This document shows positions 1-35,833 of a stretch of DNA of 35,833 nucleotides, piece by piece. Position 1 is the stretch's first letter, and the number at the start of each line of letters is the position of its first letter. The notes beneath the pieces are model-generated. The model was not told the origin of the DNA. It did not search any database and was given only the letters and a program-made list of their open reading frames with translations. The position numbers were made by a program, and so were the translations under genes. The stretch comes from a virus (Duplodnaviria > Heunggongvirae > Uroviricota > Caudoviricetes): the IMG/VR virus record IMGVR_UViG_2565956762_000002, positions 1 to 35,833 of that record. One strand, written 5' to 3'.

Positions 1-1521
1 TTATTCAGGCTTTAATTTATTGATAATAGAATCTACCATTTTAATGCCTGCCTCATTGACTATGACTGAATTGACTACTCTATCAAAATAGTCTTCTATA
101 TGGTGGGAAAATAGGAAAGCAGCACTTGATGGTTTTTTGTTCTTTTCAACTGCAGATTGCAAGACTTCATGAGGCGGAATTTTAAACCTTTTGCATGATG
201 CAATGAGATATTCAAACTCTTCAAATGATAGACAAAAAATATTCTCTGTAGGGATATGATAGTTATGTTTAAACTTGTCATATATCTTATTCATCTCATC
301 TTTAGCATAAGTATTAGCTAGGATACTACCATTGCCTAAGAAAAGGTTTTTATATGTAATGCAAATGATATATGAGTTAGCCCTGAATGGAGCTATTATT
401 CGCTCATTAGAGTATATTTCTCGATTAACTTCGTGAGATTGTTCGATTGCTTTTAATACCGATTTCTTTATTTTTCCTGCAATATCCTCAGGGCGTAATG
501 TTACCATGCCTTTTTGGTGTATCTCAACGCCTTTAGCATCAATGAAAATATTTGCCTCAGTATGTGGAATGAAATAATCAACTACTTTATTATCTTTAGG
601 TAGTCGTTCTTTAAGGTATTTTTCGTTATGAAAATCAATTTCGCTTTCTTTTAGTATTAATTCCAGTGCATTTTCAAATACATTTCCAAAGCTATCCATG
701 AACTTCTCGGCATCAGTTCTTCTTAAAAGATCATATATGAACGTCTGTATGCTTGTTGAAGTCAGTTGTGTGTGTATCTGAAAATACTCTGAACCTTTTT
801 TTATTAATGGTTTTTCAAGAAAAGGTGATGATGAGTAGTATTCAAGCAAAGGTTTATCATAGGTTTTTGATTTGCAAAATGTAGATAGTTCATTGTAATT
901 TATTGATATTGCATCAAGAAATTTCTCAATGGTATTTCTAGGAATGATGTCAAATAATATAGTAAATGTATCTACATTCATTTTTCTCACGGGATGCTCT
1001 TCTGTTATGTGAGTTATTAATATGTAAGATAGCTTAAGAAAGTCTTCGATAGATACATTCGTGATAGTAAAAAAACTTGTCTTTATTTTATGGTTTTTTT
1101 CAAGTTCTGAAAATAGAAAGACTTGTCTGCTAATTGTGTTTAGAGCGTCAATTTTCTGGTAGATTCCTTGTTGGTATAGATTATTTCTAATGAAGAAATG
1201 CATGCCATTCTTCCTCTCAAGACCGATAGGAATAATGTTCAAGGTTTCATAAGTTTTTTGGAAGAGTTTTATTGCTTGATTTTTATCGAGGATTTTGAAT
1301 TTTTTATTCTTGCCAGTTACTGACGCAGACCACTTTAGACATAAATTAACAATCCAAGGCATGTGTCGTAACATGTGGATATTATCTTCAAATTTTTGTA
1401 AGTTATATTGCATACACAATTCGATAAATAAATCAGGGGAATAACCTTGGATTTCTGAACGAATAGCATCCATTCTTAACTTTGCAACCGCATCAGATTG
1501 AATATCTAATTTTTGAATCAC
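1..1521 (-). CDS. Hypothetical 506-aa protein, integrase-adjacent cargo gene
   Basis: Uninterrupted minus-strand ORF ending with TAA at 1-3. GTG start at 1519-1521 lies 13 nt downstream of the int stop and is preceded by GGAGA (revcomp of 1526-1530), suggesting co-transcription with int. Visibly AT-rich versus the phage backbone. No motif I can assign. Confidence 0.6.
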   Translation of the reverse strand: MIQKLDIQSDAVAKLRMDAIRSEIQGYSPDLFIELCMQYNLQKFEDNIHMLRHMPWIVNLCLKWSASVTGKNKKFKILDKNQAIKLFQKTYETLNIIPIGLERKNGMHFFIRNNLYQQGIYQKIDALNTISRQVFLFSELEKNHKIKTSFFTITNVSIEDFLKLSYILITHITEEHPVRKMNVDTFTILFDIIPRNTIEKFLDAISINYNELSTFCKSKTYDKPLLEYYSSSPFLEKPLIKKGSEYFQIHTQLTSTSIQTFIYDLLRRTDAEKFMDSFGNVFENALELILKESEIDFHNEKYLKERLPKDNKVVDYFIPHTEANIFIDAKGVEIHQKGMVTLRPEDIAGKIKKSVLKAIEQSHEVNREIYSNERIIAPFRANSYIICITYKNLFLGNGSILANTYAKDEMNKIYDKFKHNYHIPTENIFCLSFEEFEYLIASCKRFKIPPHEVLQSAVEKNKKPSSAAFLFSHHIEDYFDRVVNSVIVNEAGIKMVDSIINKLKPE

Positions 1522-1533
1522 AATAGGTCTCCA

Positions 1534-2547
1534 CTACAAATTATAAAGAGGATTTTTAGTCACCGCGTCTTCAAGGTGATCGGGCGAAAAGTGGGCGTAA
1601 ATCATGGTCATTTTTATATCGGCATGACCCAAAATATCACGCAGTACCAGTATGTTTCCGCCGTTCATCATAAAGTGACTGGCGAATGTATGGCGAAGCA
1701 CGTGGGTGCATTGGCCCTCCGGTAGGTCAATACCGGCCCGCTTTACTGCCCGCTCAAAGGCTTTTCTGCATGGCGTGAATAACTTTCCTCTGTTTTTGGG
1801 GAGTTCATCATACAGATCCTGAGATATCGGCACAGTACGGTTTTTCTTGCCTTTTGTTTTTGTATAAGTAATTCGGTATTTCGATATTTGATGGCCCTGC
1901 AGATTTTCGGCTTCACTCCACCGTGCGCCAGTAGCCAGGCATATTTTTGCAATCATTAGTAAGCTAGGGCTTTGAGATTCAGCACATGCCGCCAACAGGC
2001 GCTTGATTTCGTCCGTGGAAAGAAAAGCCAGCTCACCTTCGGCAATTTTGAAGGTCGGAAGTCCTGCCAGCGGGTTTGGTGCTGACCAGTGTCCTAGTTT
2101 TTTTAATGTACCGAACACAGATGATAGATTGCGCTGTTCAAGGTTTACCGTGCGGGGCTTAACGGGCGACATCAGCGTGCCATCTTCATTTCGCACTTCA
2201 CCTTTTAGCCGTGCTTCGCGGTATTTCGTAAAGTCACCGGCAGTCAGCTCTGAAGCGATGGGATCGCCCAGACCATTACAGATAATTCCAAGTTTCGCCA
2301 TGAGTCGCTTGGGGTCTGCGAGTGTTTGACCATACAGGGAATACCACAGCTCAATTAATTCTGATAGGTGTCGCCGATCTTCCTTTTCTCCCAGCCAAGG
2401 TTTCTTGTTTACCTCGTCCATGGTGAAATTCTCAAACGCAATGGCTTCGCCTTTCGTCGCAAATTGTTTGCGTACGCGTTTGCCATCTCGCCCGTTTGGG
2501 TAGCATTCACATAACCACTTTCCGTTCGGCTGTTTTCTGATGGTCAT
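1534..2547 (-). CDS. int: Tyrosine recombinase / phage integrase (P2/186 family)
   Basis: 337-aa ORF with the C-terminal catalytic region typical of tyrosine recombinases (HVLRHTFASHF ... DIKMTMIYAH). Sits divergent from the early operon, adjacent to the repressor, as in P2/186. Confidence 0.92.
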   Translation of the reverse strand: MTIRKQPNGKWLCECYPNGRDGKRVRKQFATKGEAIAFENFTMDEVNKKPWLGEKEDRRHLSELIELWYSLYGQTLADPKRLMAKLGIICNGLGDPIASELTAGDFTKYREARLKGEVRNEDGTLMSPVKPRTVNLEQRNLSSVFGTLKKLGHWSAPNPLAGLPTFKIAEGELAFLSTDEIKRLLAACAESQSPSLLMIAKICLATGARWSEAENLQGHQISKYRITYTKTKGKKNRTVPISQDLYDELPKNRGKLFTPCRKAFERAVKRAGIDLPEGQCTHVLRHTFASHFMMNGGNILVLRDILGHADIKMTMIYAHFSPDHLEDAVTKNPLYNL

Positions 2548-9292: not shown

Positions 9293-10372
9293 GTGGCGTT
9301 ATCAGATGCGTTAATTACAGTAAATCAAGCCGAACGGGGCGGTGAAAACGCGTTGAGAGGCTTTTCATATCAAGCCTCTTGGGGGATAAATTATTTACTT
9401 GAGAAACAAAAAGAAAAGGAGAAATATTTATTTCTATTTGAATATCATGACGATATTCTTGTATTGAATTCATCTGTTTCTCCGACTAGTGCTGAGTTTA
9501 TCCAAGTTAAAACAAAAAAAGATGGTAAATGGACACTCGCAGCAATAGTGAACGCAACAAAAGCTAAACCTAAATCATTTGTTGCAAAACTATATGACCA
9601 TTTCTATCAATTCGTTGGTCACGAAATTTATATGGTTCTGTTATCGAATGCTGGATTCGATTTCTTAAATGATAATAACGAAAAAGGTAGTGATCTTAAT
9701 AATGAGCATAAGGAAATTATAATTAGTAAGGTTCAAGAGCAGCTAAATACTAAAAAAGAAGTTCCTCTTGATAAAATAAAATTTAAAACATCTGATCTTA
9801 GTTTGTTAGATCCTAACTCACATTTATACGGGAAAGTTGCAGTTTTTTTGAATTCTTACTTTGGGGATGATCATGGTATTAATTCAACAGCATTCACTAA
9901 ATTATTAATCAATAAATGTAATGAGAAGGTTAGTGTTGCTTCTAGTGATATCAAAACTTTTGAAGATTTAGTACTAAAGAAAGGTATATCTTCAGAATTT
10001 GTAACTGATTTATTATCTGGACTCATTGCAAGCATAAAAATAACGCCAAAATGGGAACAGGTTTGTATGTTGCTTGGTACTTTCTCAGATCCTTATGAGG
10101 GGATTAAATTACAATCAGTTTTTACACGCATATCAATAAAAGTGCTCAATGTCAATTCAATATACTATCTTTATTTTCTGGAATTTCAATCGGCTCTAAA
10201 GATTATAGAGCATTATCGTGAGATACCTGTTCGAGACCTCTTCTTTACACTCGAAAAAACAATTGCAGCGGGGGGCGGGGATTTCTCTTTATTAAATCAA
10301 GAAGAGAAATTTATGATTGCTATATATGCAATTATAAAGTTGACTTTTGAGGATGTTTCTTATGAAGAATAA
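9293..10372 (+). CDS. Candidate defense effector: predicted PD-(D/E)xK-like (Cap4/DUF4297-like) nuclease
   Basis: 359-aa ORF with GTG start at 9293 in an AT-rich island. N-terminal motifs RGFSYQASW ... EYHDDILVL ... EFIQVKTKK resemble a restriction-endonuclease-like D...(E/Q)xK core. Confidence 0.7.
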   Translation: MALSDALITVNQAERGGENALRGFSYQASWGINYLLEKQKEKEKYLFLFEYHDDILVLNSSVSPTSAEFIQVKTKKDGKWTLAAIVNATKAKPKSFVAKLYDHFYQFVGHEIYMVLLSNAGFDFLNDNNEKGSDLNNEHKEIIISKVQEQLNTKKEVPLDKIKFKTSDLSLLDPNSHLYGKVAVFLNSYFGDDHGINSTAFTKLLINKCNEKVSVASSDIKTFEDLVLKKGISSEFVTDLLSGLIASIKITPKWEQVCMLLGTFSDPYEGIKLQSVFTRISIKVLNVNSIYYLYFLEFQSALKIIEHYREIPVRDLFFTLEKTIAAGGGDFSLLNQEEKFMIAIYAIIKLTFEDVSYEE

Positions 10373-12020
10373 CGTTAAATTTAAAAATATAAAAATACTC
10401 TCATTAAGAGACAGAAAAGCTTTTTCTTATGAGTTTTCAGAAGGGGTTAACTTCATATATGGTACAAATGATGTTGGTAAATCAAGCCTGATTAAAAGTC
10501 TTTATTACACATTAGGTGGAGATTTAAGGCTTGATGATGCTTGGAAATCAGATGATATAGTTACACTGGTGGAAATTAATAACGGGGAAAATGATTTTAT
10601 TTTTTTACGTTATAAAAAGATTATTGGTGTCTTTGATTTGAAGAATGATGATCTAGTCGTGTATAACACGATTTCGTCATTAGCATCTCGTGTTTCAAAT
10701 ATATTTGGTTTTAAACTGGAATTACATAATAAATATACGGGTGCTACGACTCAGGCAAACCCTGCTTGTTTGTTTGCCCCATTCTTTATTGATCAGGATG
10801 AAGGATGGAAAGCGGTGATAAATTCTTTCGAAAACATGAGTATGTACTCAGAATGGCAAAAAAACATTCTTTACTATCACTCTGGAATTAAGCCAAAGGA
10901 ATATTATACAGTTCAAGGGAAAATCAAAGAAATTAAAGTTAAAATTTCAGAGTTAGATGGTTTTGTTAAGGTTCTAAAAAGAAGCAAAAGTAAGATTGAT
11001 GAATCTTTTGGCGTGGTTTTATTTGATGTTGATTTGGATTTTTATAAATCAAAGTTGGAACGTATATTAAATGAATATTCTAATTTGAATTTAGTTCAGA
11101 CAGAATATAGATTGAATCTTTTGAGGTTATATTCTAGGAAGAATTTCCTTGAGAGTGAACTCAAAGAGATAACTGCGATTATTGATAATGAATTTGAGAT
11201 TTCGAATTTTCGAGATGATAATGTTGCTTATTCAGTAAATGAATATAATTATATAAACCATAGAGATGAAATGCTCAAAAACATTGCTGTTCTTGCAGAT
11301 GAGAAAAGCAAGATTGAGGAAAATATTCCTAAATTGAATCAAAAGCTAGAAGAGTCAAGGGCTGCTTCAGAGGCGTTGCAGGCGCTGATTTTAGAAACTC
11401 AATCGGAAATAACGCTTCATGATGTTATTAAATCTGCTGCATACCATGAAATTGAATCTACTTTTATTTCACAGTTAGATGAGTTATTCGTTGAGATTGG
11501 TCGAAAAGAAGGCGAGTTGACAGAGTTACAAGAAGAATTAGAAGTATACAATGATAAGAAAAGAACTGTTAAAATAAATGACTGTTTCAAAGAGTATTTC
11601 GCTAAAGCTCTTAAAGAGCTTGGTGTCGAAAATACAAAGGTAGGTGGCCTTAGTAGTTATAATAATATTACTAAGGGCAAGACTGGTAGTCGAGGTCCTC
11701 GAGGTATATTTGCATTTCACTACGCGCTGCTTAGTGTTATGAAAAGCAACGCTTCAGTTGAGAATATGCCTATAGTAATAGACTCTCCAAAGCAACAAGA
11801 TTTGGATCCAGAGCATACGCATAAGCTTATAAAACTATGCTTGGATGGGTTTTCCCTTACAAATCAGATTATTATTGGAACTGTTGGTTATGAGAGTTTC
11901 ATGGATGGTTTTAATAGCATCAAACTTGAAAATAAATATCATCTTTTAAATGATGAACATTATGATAATGTTTATTCTCAATTAATGCCATTGTTTGAAC
12001 GGGTGATACTTTCAAGATGA
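10362..12020 (+). CDS. Candidate defense partner: SMC/Rad50-like ABC ATPase with long coiled-coil
   Basis: ATG at 10362 overlaps the upstream stop (ATGAAGAATAA); GAGGA lies upstream. N-terminal P-loop GTNDVGKSS, about 250 aa of heptad-rich coiled-coil, and a C-terminal head with MPIVIDSPKQQDLDPEHTH. Confidence 0.75.
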   Translation: MKNNVKFKNIKILSLRDRKAFSYEFSEGVNFIYGTNDVGKSSLIKSLYYTLGGDLRLDDAWKSDDIVTLVEINNGENDFIFLRYKKIIGVFDLKNDDLVVYNTISSLASRVSNIFGFKLELHNKYTGATTQANPACLFAPFFIDQDEGWKAVINSFENMSMYSEWQKNILYYHSGIKPKEYYTVQGKIKEIKVKISELDGFVKVLKRSKSKIDESFGVVLFDVDLDFYKSKLERILNEYSNLNLVQTEYRLNLLRLYSRKNFLESELKEITAIIDNEFEISNFRDDNVAYSVNEYNYINHRDEMLKNIAVLADEKSKIEENIPKLNQKLEESRAASEALQALILETQSEITLHDVIKSAAYHEIESTFISQLDELFVEIGRKEGELTELQEELEVYNDKKRTVKINDCFKEYFAKALKELGVENTKVGGLSSYNNITKGKTGSRGPRGIFAFHYALLSVMKSNASVENMPIVIDSPKQQDLDPEHTHKLIKLCLDGFSLTNQIIIGTVGYESFMDGFNSIKLENKYHLLNDEHYDNVYSQLMPLFERVILSR

Positions 12021-32740: not shown

Positions 32741-33837
32741 ATTTCAGCTCTGAACTGCTTAACAAAGGCAACAAAACTCCGGCATTCAGCATCAGTATTG
32801 AAGGCAGGGATATCACCACTGTGCTGGACAACCGCCTGATGGGGCTGACGCTGACGGATAACCGGGGATTTGAAGCGGACCAGCTTGATCTGGAGCTGGA
32901 CGACGCCGATGGAAAAATCGTGCTGCCGCGCCGTGGTGCGGTCATTACGCTGGCGCTGGGCTGGAAGGGGCAGCCGCTTTTCCCGAAAGGGGCATTCACG
33001 GTGGACGAGATTGAACACACTGGCGCACCGGACCGCCTGACTATCCGGGCGCGAAGTGCTGATTTTCGGGAAACCCTGAATACCCGCCGTGAAAAATCGT
33101 GGCATAACACCACCATCGGGGAAGTGGTGAAGGAAATAGCCGCGCGGCACAAGCTGAAGATGGCACTGGGTAAAGAGCTGTCGGATAAGCCCGTGGAGCA
33201 TATAGACCAGACTAATGAGAGTGACGGCAGTTTTCTGATGCGACTGGCGCGACAGTACGGTGCCATCGCGTCGGTGAAAAATGGCAATCTGTTATTCATC
33301 CGGCAGGGGCAGGGCAAAAGCGCCACTGGTAAACCACTGCCAGTGATCACTATCACACGCAAGGACGGCGACAGTCACCGCTTTACCCTGGCAGATCGCG
33401 GAGCCTACACGGGCGTAATTGCCAGCTGGTTGCATACCCGTGAACCTGCGAAGAAAGAAAGCACCACGGTGAAGCGTAAGCGCAGAACTAAGAAGCAGAA
33501 GAAAGAGCCTGAAGCGAAGCAGGGCGATTACCTGGTGGGTACGGATGAAAACGTGCTGGTACTTAATCGCACTTATGCCAACCGGAGCAACGCCGAACGA
33601 GCGGCGAAAATGCAGTGGGAACGCCTGCAACGCGGCGTTGCGTCATTCTCGCTACAACTGGCGGAAGGGCGGGCAGATCTCTACACGGAAATGCCAGTGA
33701 AAGTCAGTGGCTTTAAACAGCAGATAGATGATGCGGAATGGACTATTACCACCCTGACGCATACTGTCAGCCCGGATAACGGTTTTACGACCAGTCTGGA
33801 GCTTGAAGTGAAGATTGATGATTTCGAAATGGAATGA
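32737..33837 (+). CDS. D: Tail protein D (late control D)
   Basis: 366 aa overlapping the U stop. Confidence 0.9.
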   Translation: MNFSSELLNKGNKTPAFSISIEGRDITTVLDNRLMGLTLTDNRGFEADQLDLELDDADGKIVLPRRGAVITLALGWKGQPLFPKGAFTVDEIEHTGAPDRLTIRARSADFRETLNTRREKSWHNTTIGEVVKEIAARHKLKMALGKELSDKPVEHIDQTNESDGSFLMRLARQYGAIASVKNGNLLFIRQGQGKSATGKPLPVITITRKDGDSHRFTLADRGAYTGVIASWLHTREPAKKESTTVKRKRRTKKQKKEPEAKQGDYLVGTDENVLVLNRTYANRSNAERAAKMQWERLQRGVASFSLQLAEGRADLYTEMPVKVSGFKQQIDDAEWTITTLTHTVSPDNGFTTSLELEVKIDDFEME

Positions 33838-33927
33838 TTCTTCGCAATGGAGAACTTTTAAGTTTTCAAAATGGAATAATGCGGTATCATTATTGTGAAT
33901 TTAGCAAAAATGGGGAGAACTCGAAAA

Positions 33928-34146
33928 ATGATGATTTGCCCACTGTGTGGAAGTGCCGCCCATACTCGCAGCAGTTTTCAGGTATCTTCATTGACCAAAG
34001 AGCGTTACAACCAGTGCCAGAACATTAACTGCAGCCATACTTTTGTTACCCATGAAACTTTTGTTCGTTCGATTGCAACGCCAAAAGAGTCAAATCCGGT
34101 TCAGCCGCATCCTCATAAATTTAAACAGGTGGGTTTGCCGATTTAA
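33928..34146 (+). CDS. ogr: Ogr/Delta zinc-finger late-gene activator
   Basis: MMICPLCGSAAHTRSS ... ERYNQCQNINCSHTF is the Ogr C2C2 zinc finger; start placed at 33928 rather than the upstream in-frame ATGs. Confidence 0.85.
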   Translation: MMICPLCGSAAHTRSSFQVSSLTKERYNQCQNINCSHTFVTHETFVRSIATPKESNPVQPHPHKFKQVGLPI

Positions 34147-34209
34147 ATGGCGACATAACTACATGATTTAAAACTATACTTTTCTATAAGTTGAGGTTAA
34201 ATTAACAAT

Positions 34210-34388
34210 GCCTGACGTTAGCGGGGATTTATCCCCACTCCGTAGATATGTAGTTTGTCGCTTTGCGACTGCGGACCGATTACCTGATTGCCATGTAATC
34301 GGACGCCGACTTGTTAAGCTTTCTGGGCTAACTGGTTGTTATTTTTTATTTAGTTAGGGCCATGCGCTTGCGCTAAGAGACGTCAGGT
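34210..34388 (+). ncRNA. Candidate structured non-coding RNA upstream of the RT (retron msr/msd-like or DRT-type)
   Basis: 8-bp inverted repeat CCTGACGT (34211-34218) / ACGTCAGG (34380-34387) flanks about 160 nt with hairpins at 34223-34236, 34257-34269 and 34276-34302 (8-bp stem CCGATTAC/GTAATCGG). Confidence 0.25.
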
Positions 34389-34407
34389 ATCTATGGAGGA
34401 ACAAGTT

Positions 34408-34581
34408 ATGGATACAAACGAACTTGGCTTAGTTAAGGCGCGTGTTGAACTGATCACCGCTATGCTCAAATGCGCAACCGCGTTTGTTGGCTTAGTTGGT
34501 GCGGTTTACGCCGTTCTTAACATGGCCTTCAACTACAACAATTTAACTCATGACAATAGAAGTTCAAAGGTGGGAAGATAA
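34408..34581 (+). CDS. Small single-TM protein (57 aa), possible RT-associated effector
   Basis: ATG at 34408 preceded by GGAGG at 8 nt; hydrophobic segment ATAFVGLVGAVYAVLNMAF; the 3' end overlaps the RT start. Confidence 0.4.
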   Translation: MDTNELGLVKARVELITAMLKCATAFVGLVGAVYAVLNMAFNYNNLTHDNRSSKVGR

Positions 34582-35323
34582 ATTTGAGATTAAGCCCGGG
34601 GTTTGGGTTTATGTCCCAAGCGTTGAGGCACGTAAAGTCGGAGGGAAGATACTTCAGGCTGTCAGAAACAAGTGGATTCCGCCACTCTATTTTTACCATC
34701 TAAGAACTGGTGGGCATCTTAAAGCTGCCAGATTACACTTAAAAAGTGATTTTTTTGCCGTTGTTGATATTAAACATTTTTTTCAGTCAACGAGCCGTAG
34801 TCGTATCACCCGTGATCTAAAGAGCTACTTCACCTATTCTCAAGCGCGGGAAATCTCAACATTTTCAACTGTAAGAAACTTGTCCCATAGTCCACATAAG
34901 CATGTCCTCCCTTTTGGTTTTGTTCAATCTCCAATACTTGCAACCCTCTGCTTAGATAAAAGTTATTTTGGTAGCTTACTACGCCGATTGAACAAACATC
35001 ATGATCTCAAGCTAAGTGTGTTTATGGATGATGTGATCATCTCGTCAAACGATTTGGCCCAATTACAAGCGGCTTACGACGAAGCACTAGTGGCAATGCG
35101 TAAATCTGGTTATCAAGCCAACATGAGTAAAACTCAGGCACCATCGTCAAAGATTAGCGTGTTTAATTTAACTTTGAGTAAGGGAGTTATGAAAGTCACA
35201 TCTCAGAAAATGAGTGACTTCCTGATTGATTTCTATTCAAGCAATTATGAGCCGCACAGAATAGGGGTCAAAAACTACGTCGAAGCTGTTAATCCAGGGC
35301 AAGCGAAACTCTTTAAGTTGTAA
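34550..35323 (+). CDS. Compact reverse transcriptase (257 aa)
   Basis: RT motifs in order: RKVGGKIL, VVDIKHFFQS, PFGFVQSPILATLCL, FMDDVIISS (YxDD-like), then SKT and KVTS. Confidence 0.75.
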   Translation: MTIEVQRWEDKFEIKPGVWVYVPSVEARKVGGKILQAVRNKWIPPLYFYHLRTGGHLKAARLHLKSDFFAVVDIKHFFQSTSRSRITRDLKSYFTYSQAREISTFSTVRNLSHSPHKHVLPFGFVQSPILATLCLDKSYFGSLLRRLNKHHDLKLSVFMDDVIISSNDLAQLQAAYDEALVAMRKSGYQANMSKTQAPSSKISVFNLTLSKGVMKVTSQKMSDFLIDFYSSNYEPHRIGVKNYVEAVNPGQAKLFKL

Positions 35324-35397
35324 TTGCGATCGCATGTAGTAGCAACTGGGCTTGACTGAATGCCTGCCGCCATTTTGCCGCCACTACCAAAGAAAAA

Positions 35398-35421
35398 GGG
35401 GCTACGCTTTCACGTAGCCCC
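35398..35421. terminator. Hairpin terminator downstream of ssrA (also terminates the RT transcript)
   Basis: GGGGCTACG-CTTTCA-CGTAGCCCC flanked by T-runs on both strands. Confidence 0.6.
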
Positions 35422-35431
35422 TTGATTTATT

Positions 35432-35794
35432 TGGTGGAGCTGGCGGGAGTTGAACCCGCGTCCGAAATTCCTACATCCTCGGTACTACATGCTTAGTCAG
35501 TCTTTACATTCGCTTGCCAGCTGCGGACGGACACGCCACTAACAAACTAGCCTGATTAAGTTTTAACGCTTCAACCCCAGGCAGGGCTTCCACGCGATCT
35601 CTTTTGGGTTTGACCTCTCTTGATCCCCGTCCTAAGAGCGGAGGCTAGGGAGAGAGGGCTCTAAGCAGGTTATTAAGCTGCTAAAGCGTAGTTTTCGTCG
35701 TTTGCGACTATTTTTTGCGGCTTTTTACGAGGCCAACCGCCCCTCGGCATGCACCTTGGGTTTCGCAAATCCCGTCGAATCCAGAATCAGCCCC
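35432..35794 (-). ncRNA. ssrA: tmRNA (SsrA), 363 nt
   Basis: Minus strand reads GGGGCTGATTCTGGATTCGACGGG ... GGACGCGGGTTCAACTCCCGCCAGCTCCACCA, the enterobacterial ssrA 5' and 3' ends as recalled; length 363 nt. Confidence 0.95.
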
Positions 35795-35833
35795 AATGTG
35801 TAACGGCAAGTATACCAGATTTATGAGCGCCAT

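Follow-up and report, generated by a model that had tools for sequence, protein, structure and literature searches.

A retron-like reverse transcriptase cassette between ogr and the attachment site of a P2-like prophage in Escherichia coli ssrA

The 35,833-nucleotide stretch of Caudoviricetes DNA recorded in IMG/VR as IMGVR_UViG_2565956762_000002 (positions 1 to 35,833, hereafter referred to as the window) is very probably a P2-like prophage (Peduoviridae) that looks complete, is of the Fels-2/SopEPhi type, encodes a 186-type integrase, sits in the 3' end of the Escherichia coli transfer-messenger RNA (tmRNA) gene ssrA, and carries a reverse transcriptase (RT) locus as cargo. The ogr-side border of the prophage lies within positions 35430 to 35476, inside the ssrA 3' end, and the DNA from ogr to ssrA is all phage. 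The RT locus (~34113 to 35363) forms a cargo cassette of 1.2 kb that is flanked by ogr on one side and by the integrase sites of the attP arm on the other. The cassette is a retron-like module consisting of a structured noncoding RNA (ncRNA), a 57-amino-acid (aa) hydrophobic protein, and a 257-aa RT, and it fits no named retron type.

The gene order is P2-like in that a tyrosine integrase and CI mark one end, and D and ogr the other, as judged from the map of open reading frames (ORFs), Pfam, and the NCBI Prokaryotic Genome Annotation Pipeline (PGAP) annotation of the right end of E. coli EcPNK004, which is 99.5% identical. The gene set is full from int/CI to D/ogr, and the arms are intact on both sides. 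The last conserved phage gene ahead of the cargo is that for the late-gene activator, ogr (33928 to 34146, plus strand; Pfam Ogr_Delta, 6.7e-22), and the tyrosine-type integrase (1534 to 2547, minus strand; Pfam Int_N and Phage_integrase) lies at the other end of the prophage. A preliminary description of this DNA had the window beginning exactly at the stop of the gene adjacent to int; indeed, a minus-strand ORF of 506 aa (1 to 1521), gapS1, has the first base of its stop codon at position 1. The order CI-int-cargo-att is common to the window prophage, SopEPhi, and Cartapus, and the DNA between the two attachment site (att) cores measures 35.6 kb, compared with 35.2 kb in SopEPhi and 35.2 kb in SEN8.

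A full-length ssrA gene was identified at 35432 to 35794 on the minus strand using both ARAGORN, which gave the tmRNA tag as ANDENYALAA, and Rfam (RF00023, model positions 1 to 374; 295.8 bits, the gathering score being 47). As ssrA lies on the minus strand at these positions, its 3' end faces the prophage, as the preliminary description had stated. The att core at the ogr-side junction, termed attR in that description, is found at 35430 to 35476 (minus strand); by the SopEPhi definition it is 47 bp long and corresponds to the ssrA 3' end plus 1 to 2 nucleotides (nt). Nucleotides 1 to 47 of the SopEPhi record are 100% identical to window positions 35430 to 35476, and the ends of the Fels-2 record (23 and 24 nt) are annotated as attP halves. 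As an exact direct repeat in E. coli lysogens the core is 46 bp (35431 to 35476) and reads ATGTAGGAATTTCGGACGCGGGTTCAACTCCCGCCAGCTCCACCAA, that is, the last 45 nt of ssrA and one further base, as read at both EcPNK004 junctions. The 5' part of ssrA is host DNA, while its last 45 nt, inside the att core, may be of host or phage origin. Window positions 35477 to 35833, comprising the host part of ssrA and the smpB-side flank, are of the E. coli type, with at least 99% identity to E. coli compared with approximately 95% to ssrA in Klebsiella prophage records.

No att direct repeat had been seen within the window, and this was borne out, as the 46-bp core is present in a single copy (35431 to 35476) and the longest other matches to it across the window are 11 nt, which is at chance level (E values of 0.25 to 0.76). 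From 33800 to 35429, no word of 9 nt or longer is shared with the ssrA 3' end or core, using searches with the exact core, blastn-short, and shared k-mers. An att repeat between ogr and the RT, which would place the RT outside the prophage, is therefore lacking at this word length.

Immediately inside the core is the phage attP arm of the ogr side (35364 to 35429, plus strand), which is conserved among ssrA-integrating P2-like phages and at whose left edge the cargo stops. Window positions 35364 to 35476 share 95.5 to 97.3% identity with Cartapus, SopEPhi, SEN8, and Fels-2, which do not carry the RT, and in all four the homology begins at 35364. A synthetic attP, in which the core was placed between the ogr-side and int-side arms, aligned without interruption to the genomes of Cartapus, SEN8, and Yersinia phage MLG42, and in the matched phage genomes this contiguous attP lies between the ogr/D end and int. 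At the start of the arm, two tandem arm-type integrase sites, CTGCCGCCATT and TTGCCGCCACTA (35364 to 35386, plus strand), agree with the consensus for 186-type sites, tgccGCCActt (Nilsson et al. 2011, PMC3448106), and integration of SopEPhi and Fels-2 into ssrA is described in the same publication (PMC3448106). The sequence TGCCGCCA occurs at 35365 and 35376, with 11 sites across the window against 2.1 expected. Two further copies of the arm site are present in the int-side arm (approximately nt 92 to 115 of locus L003), and arm-type sites were also found behind the RT in a prophage located at ybjL.

The arm also contains a G+C-rich, bidirectional terminator-like hairpin (35396 to 35423) for which a terminator scan was positive on both strands. 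On the ssrA strand, 12 pairs are followed by TTTCTTTGGT, and on the RT strand, 11 pairs are followed by GATTTATTTG; the better T-run is on the ssrA strand. A terminator of ssrA shared with the RT gene had been proposed at 35398 to 35421. The hairpin is real and terminator-like in both directions, which upholds that part of the proposal, but it is not a host terminator; it is attP-arm DNA conserved in related phages that have no RT. In genomes with an empty site, ssrA runs into TCATGATTGGACGG... and not into the hairpin, and since these genomes have other sequence after ssrA, the hairpin is phage DNA, brought in along with the ssrA 3' end that the phage carries. It ends transcription of the restored ssrA and probably also terminates the transcript coming from the RT/ogr side, the RT stop codon being at 35321 to 35323. 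In Fels-2 and SopEPhi, which lack the RT, the gene facing the hairpin is ogr.

The preliminary description had suggested looking leftward of position 1 for a repeated ssrA 3' end and for an uninterrupted ssrA region in related strains, and both were found in public genomes. Over its right 2 kb, which covers D, ogr, the RT locus, and ssrA, the window is 99.2 to 99.5% identical to 28 complete E. coli genomes. One of these, EcPNK004, is annotated with smpB and ssrA first, then the RT, the small ORF, ogr, and D, then the remainder of the prophage up to CI and int, and finally one hypothetical gene, an 'ssrA' marked as partial, and ypjA; the core is present at both prophage ends, with the int-end copy (L001, 39510 to 39555) followed by ypjA. 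The partial 'ssrA' of 177 nt annotated by RefSeq at this int-side junction (L001, 39378 to 39554) contains only the last 45 nt of ssrA, the remainder being phage attP arm. Over its left 1.6 kb (1 to 1600), which contains gapS1 and int, the window shares 99.9% identity with 15 further E. coli genomes, and in strain XJW9B263 the core was found 133 to 178 nt past the gapS1 stop codon (L091, 2323 to 2368), abutting the ypjA flank. To the left of window position 1, the core TTGGTGGAGCTGGCGGGAGTTGAACCCGCGTCCGAAATTCCTACAT is thus predicted at -178 to -133, after the ypjA-side sequence ...CCGTCCAATCATGA. In 2512 of the 5426 complete E. coli genomes, many of them with 100% identity, the ssrA 3' half runs straight into the ypjA-side flank with nothing in between.

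Twelve GenBank records ('Klebsiella phage Kp4845-2' and others; OK490395 and others), each 35,561 bp, are 100% identical to the segment from -131 to 35429 in window numbering. Their span is exactly the DNA between the two cores, with OK490395 beginning right after the int-side core. They were considered as independent evidence of a free phage and rejected as such; they were extracted from draft genomes on the basis of PHASTER with manual curation (PMC8617712) and for this reason support the att-to-att span only. The only records 100% identical across the prophage are labelled as Klebsiella pneumoniae prophages (PMC8617712). The prophage border is fixed to base level for annotation, and the RT locus is assigned to the phage.

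Both edges of the cassette could be placed. Its right edge is at 35363/35364, where the conserved arm begins, and its left edge falls in the variable last 11 codons of ogr (~34113 to 34146); identity of 99.7% to retron-less Klebsiella P2-like phages stops at 34112. In other phages, the interval between ogr and the arm consists of ~50 nt (Fels-2), a putative exonuclease gene (Cartapus), or a 48-aa ORF (SEN8), and because its contents differ among these three it is regarded as a variable cargo slot.

The cassette is present in 34 of the 5426 E. coli genomes. In four of these, a 76%-identical version immediately follows an Ogr of 100% identity, within a P2-like prophage adjoining ybjL (L006); in this prophage the cassette is followed by arm-type sites and then by host DNA. 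A further E. coli relative lies beside P2 remnants near mntR, and E. coli cassettes were found only beside P2-like prophage DNA. The order D-ogr-ncRNA-small ORF-RT was also identified in Klebsiella michiganensis (L055), with no tRNA or tmRNA gene nearby, and in Kalamiella (L014), where a tRNA-Met gene faces the RT as ssrA does in the window. The cassette tracks the phage end, not ssrA.

Some E. coli copies are interrupted. IS421 (1.35 kb) was found in the cassette of ~7 to 9 of ~29 E. coli carriers (e.g., NZ_CP154887 and NZ_CP042892), inserted at approximately cassette position 64/65 (window ~34211), in the a1 arm of the ncRNA, and this insertion should break the a1/a2 helix described below. 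In E. coli H1, only the 3' half of the RT is kept.

Taken as a model of integration, the attP core of 46 to 47 bp, equal to the last 45 nt of ssrA plus 1 to 2 nt, would undergo exchange catalyzed by the integrase, and an intact ssrA would be rebuilt. The DNA downstream of the rebuilt gene, including the terminator hairpin, would be phage DNA, and the host copy of the core would be displaced past int and gapS1 to ypjA, at 133 to 178 nt outside the left end of the window. In this strain, the phage would then supply a housekeeping RNA gene with its 3' end and terminator. The RT cassette would excise, be packaged, and re-integrate along with the phage, and we infer that this particular prophage is still inducible. 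Several observations weigh against this reading. The int-side att copy is outside the window and was deduced from near-identical public prophages rather than from this genome. The gapS1 end and this RT end were never found combined in the complete E. coli genomes of the collection, the combination being present only in the Kp4845-2 records. Furthermore, the cassette-bearing records are computational prophage extractions, with none from a virion or an excision product, and for this reason the mobility of the cassette with the phage is deduced from its anatomy and its relatives.

Two other histories of the RT locus were weighed against that of cargo carried by the phage. The locus could be a separate ssrA-associated islet, which the preliminary description had offered as an alternative; it would have integrated alone, in tandem with the prophage at one att site. 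It is true that ssrA is a known hotspot for many elements and is carried terminally in several phage and prophage records unrelated to each other, and that the RT family occurs mostly outside P2-like prophages, with P2 D/U genes within 6 kb in only 3 of 80 loci from other species. However, a tandem array needs an att copy between its elements, and none of 9 nt or longer is present in 33800 to 35429; nor is there an integrase between ogr and ssrA (ORF map and Pfam). The arm-type sites and the conserved attP arm separate the RT from ssrA; they do not separate ogr from the RT. The cassette is also found after ogr in prophages beside ybjL, at tRNA-Met, and elsewhere, and its E. coli copies are confined to sites beside P2-like prophage DNA. 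An islet of separate origin is therefore highly improbable.

Alternatively, the cassette could be inside the prophage borders while the prophage is defective, or the cassette could have been acquired after lysogeny, which would make it a fixed chromosomal insert and no transmissible moron. This is improbable, although the cassette-bearing records, being computational extractions, include none that is virion-derived, and the IS421 insertions in several E. coli cassettes together with one truncated RT are signs of decay in some lineages. Against it stand the full P2-like gene set with arms intact on both sides and the 35.6 kb between the cores, near the sizes of SopEPhi and SEN8. Moreover, the D-ogr-ncRNA-small ORF-RT block is found, 81% identical, at different att sites and in different genera, for which transfer with phage genomes is the simplest explanation. 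Carriage of the cassette as phage cargo between ogr and attR, the other option of the preliminary description, is thus preferred.

The compact RT (257 aa; 34550 to 35323, plus strand) matches Pfam RVT_1 (4.4e-21) and has the catalytic motif FMDD, which in nearly all of its relatives is YMDD or YVDD. Its family, of ~255 aa, is well conserved, with 72 homologue clusters found, and occurs in at least 145 species-level genomes, mostly of Gamma- and Betaproteobacteria. The nearest solved structure is that of the retron Ec86 RT (E value of 4e-13). The PADLOC retron RT models all match the window RT weakly and about equally, the best being RT_VI at 62 bits; likewise, 31 of 31 family members match every PADLOC retron RT model weakly, with best E values of 1.9e-24 (RT_VI), 3.7e-22 (I-B), and 2.3e-21 (IX). 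The RT is under every NCBIfam cut-off, those for retrons included. A named retron type was sought for the RT without success, as PADLOC, NCBIfam, and Pfam gave generic or weak retron-type matches only. In the literature on new retron types, nothing matching the RT family was found, and its protein accessions appear in no paper searched.

Directly upstream, a small hydrophobic protein of 57 aa (34408 to 34581, plus strand; 62 aa if the start is the ATG at 34393) carries a conserved C-terminal NMAFNY motif. An ORF of 39 to 107 aa encoding a hydrophobic helix and the motif (L/V)(N/S)(M/V)A(F/S)NY (e.g., LNMAFNY) is present at the same position in most of 80 related loci. The small protein has no Pfam, PADLOC, or NCBIfam family match and is a candidate membrane effector. 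From 34147 to 35363, the only ORFs of at least 50 aa are those for the small protein and the RT and a 56-aa antisense ORF within the RT gene. The small ORF overlaps the RT start by 32 nt, and no Shine-Dalgarno (SD) sequence was seen by eye ahead of the RT start codon (34520 to 34552); because the RT has no SD of its own and overlaps the small ORF, its translation is probably coupled to that of the small ORF and hence also gated by the anti-SD helix described below. In some lineages, as in the proteins P0036 (302 aa, Klebsiella pneumoniae, >1000 contigs) and P0019 (309 aa, Serratia), the frame of the small protein is annotated as continuous with the RT, giving an N-terminal extension (...LSLFNIVPNY...) that leads into the RT. 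This continuous annotation suggests a fusion or read-through, or else a start codon that was placed upstream of the true one.

The region ahead of the small ORF encodes a retron-like ncRNA (34208 to 34398, plus strand) with a minimum free energy of -67.7 kcal/mol (z = -2.95). Its elements a1 (34208 to 34219) and a2 (34378 to 34389) form a long-range helix whose conserved 7-bp part pairs 34211 to 34217 with 34381 to 34387. Across 29 aligned loci, 99% of the cells in this helix are paired and six of the seven pairs show compensatory changes; double-change cells numbered 44, compared with 10.3 +/- 2.6 for shuffled sequences and a maximum of 9 for slid controls. An AG is invariant right after a1, within UAG in all but one of the 29 loci, and the invariant G at 34221 (in UAGC, just after a1) is a candidate priming G. 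Hairpins are located at 34223 to 34236 and 34257 to 34269 (plus strand); a conserved hairpin of the ncRNA, GUCAC/GUGAY, reads GTCGC/GCGAC in the window, and an invariant GCGC hairpin lies within 34362 to 34377, just ahead of a2.

A further helix (34238 to 34249 with 34387 to 34398, plus strand) joins the segment after the first hairpin to the SD region of the small ORF. An anti-SD helix of 7 to 12 bp is present in 29 of the 29 loci, with differing sequences; in shuffle tests of individual loci, a median of 4% of shuffles were equal or better. As the helix crosses the a1/a2 stem, it is a pseudoknot or an alternative fold, and by base pairing it is predicted to mask the ribosome-binding site of the small ORF. 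At gathering thresholds, Rfam matched tmRNA alone over the window; thus, no known msr/retron RNA family matches the ncRNA. A promoter scan gave no convincing plus-strand promoter upstream of the ncRNA, and the ncRNA, small ORF, and RT would be on a single transcript.

In the working proposed for the cassette, reverse transcription or a phage trigger would open the anti-SD helix, a small membrane-active toxin would then be released, and the result would be an abortive-infection defense of the lysogen, as reported for type VI retrons. Two considerations count against a retron function: the RT matches all retron models weakly, and msDNA (multicopy single-stranded DNA) production, toxicity of the small protein, and abortive-infection defense are properties that we infer for the cassette. 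It is unlikely, however, that the RT is some other bacterial RT, such as an abortive-infection (Abi) or defense-associated RT (DRT) type or a remnant of a group II intron, with the upstream 'ncRNA' as a mere leader. The best retron model, at 62 bits, is indeed little above the model for CRISPR-associated RTs (58 bits), the RT is short (257 aa) and under every NCBIfam retron cut-off, and a family alignment inspected by eye showed no obvious VTG motif after the RT domain. Yet 14 of the 15 best solved-structure matches are retron RTs (Ec86, Kva2, Eco8, Ec78, Ec67, and Ec83), ahead of group II intron and Cas-linked RTs, and DRT/UG models score lower, the best being UG33 at 33 bits. In addition, the upstream RNA has the layout of a retron, with a long-range a1/a2 helix in which six of seven pairs covary and a UAG directly after a1.

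If the cassette is a retron, it may tentatively be seen as an unclassified lineage, a proposal that is held with somewhat less than even confidence. Such a lineage would be defined by an RT of ~255 aa with the motif Y/F-M/V-DD, no helix-turn-helix (HTH) partner, and a 40- to 60-aa membrane-type NMAFNY protein, with the small protein and probably the overlapping RT gated by an anti-SD helix that crosses a1/a2. In Enterobacterales, P2-like phages may have picked up this lineage as a moron in their ogr-attP slot. The cassette family is a compact, widespread RT system with testable RNA features.

Two further sets of cargo genes were identified in the prophage. Between int and the int-side att lies gapS1 (506 aa; 1 to 1521, minus strand), which scores 429 bits against NCBIfam antiphage_GapS1 (cut-off, 320). 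A Lamassu pair (9293 to 12020, plus strand; LmuA, 1.7e-142; LmuB, 2.3e-253) is located between the replication gene and the portal gene, adjacent to cos. The phage therefore has three cargo slots with defense-type genes, namely gapS1 (att-int), Lamassu (next to cos), and the retron-like module (ogr-att), of which the two att-flanking slots are less studied than the cos-adjacent hotspot. The core-int slot of EcPNK004 holds a different, 343-aa gene. The EcPNK004 prophage also contains a recombinase-family gene beside oppositely oriented tail-fiber and tail-fiber-assembly genes (L001, 11301 to 13323), which from the annotation looks like an invertible host-range segment.

The integration biology described here is already known, and the phage is a new member carrying a different cargo set. 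Fels-2/SopEPhi (Felsduovirus), SEN8, RE2010, and Cartapus share the same 47-bp att core, which is the ssrA 3' end. As in the window, phages of the Fels-2/SopEPhi group have 186-type arm sites and the order ...D-ogr-attP-int-CI..., and their lysogens have an intact ssrA at the ogr end and a displaced fragment at the int end. The differences lie in cargo and host. The ogr-arm slot holds the 1.2-kb cassette in the window phage and a short spacer in Fels-2 and SopEPhi, whereas the core-int slot holds gapS1 in the window phage, orfY in SopEPhi, a RES-domain gene in Cartapus, and nothing in Fels-2 and SEN8. The host of the window prophage is of the E. coli type, unlike those of the Salmonella phages Fels-2, SopEPhi, and SEN8. 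CP4-57 and other E. coli ssrA-associated prophages and islands also use the ssrA 3' end as attB and duplicate it on integration. In elements of the CP4-57 type, however, the element's own integrase adjoins ssrA, while there is none between ssrA and ogr in the window.

Retrons have been described as cargo of such phages before. According to work from the Inouye laboratory and by Dodd and Egan in 1996, retrons Ec67 and Ec86 are reportedly located in 186-related prophages and Ec73 in the P4-like phiR73; as in the window, the retron is said to be cargo of a P2/186-family or satellite prophage at a tRNA-type gene. These retrons lie in the cos-adjacent variable region, whereas the window cassette is in the other slot, ogr-attP, and its RT is much shorter and of no named type. 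The cos-adjacent variable region is a hotspot of P2-like phages (Rousset et al. 2022, PMC9122126).

Among known retrons, those of type VI (Retron-Vpa2 and Retron-Sen3) share with the cassette the gene order of ncRNA, small hydrophobic protein, and RT, and the ribosome-binding site of their small protein is likewise embedded in a conserved RNA structure, the 'hybrid RNA'. RT_VI is also the best-scoring PADLOC model for the cassette RT, barely above RT_I-B, IX, and II-A. In Retron-Vpa2, the small toxin is translationally repressed in the hybrid RNA until msDNA accumulates (bioRxiv 10.1101/2025.10.22.683967), and in Retron-Sen3, an HTH protein neutralizes the toxin (bioRxiv 10.64898/2026.04.27.721009), a Cro/C1-type HTH protein being found beside the RT in ~78% of type VI entries (bioRxiv 10.64898/2026.04.27.721009). 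Such an HTH gene is not present in the cassette (ORF map, no HTH match). The small protein is 40 to 60 aa with NMAFNY in the cassette family compared with 75 to 79 aa in type VI, and the catalytic motif is Y/F-M-DD compared with YADD in Vpa2. By analogy, the cassette may resemble a type VI retron in its working, yet it is not filed as one because its RT could not be placed in type VI with the models used. In type VI retrons, translation of the small toxin is controlled by reverse transcription, and the cassette could extend work on these elements; if the reading as an unclassified lineage is true, it would be a minimal type VI relative that relies on RNA structure alone to keep its toxin silent.

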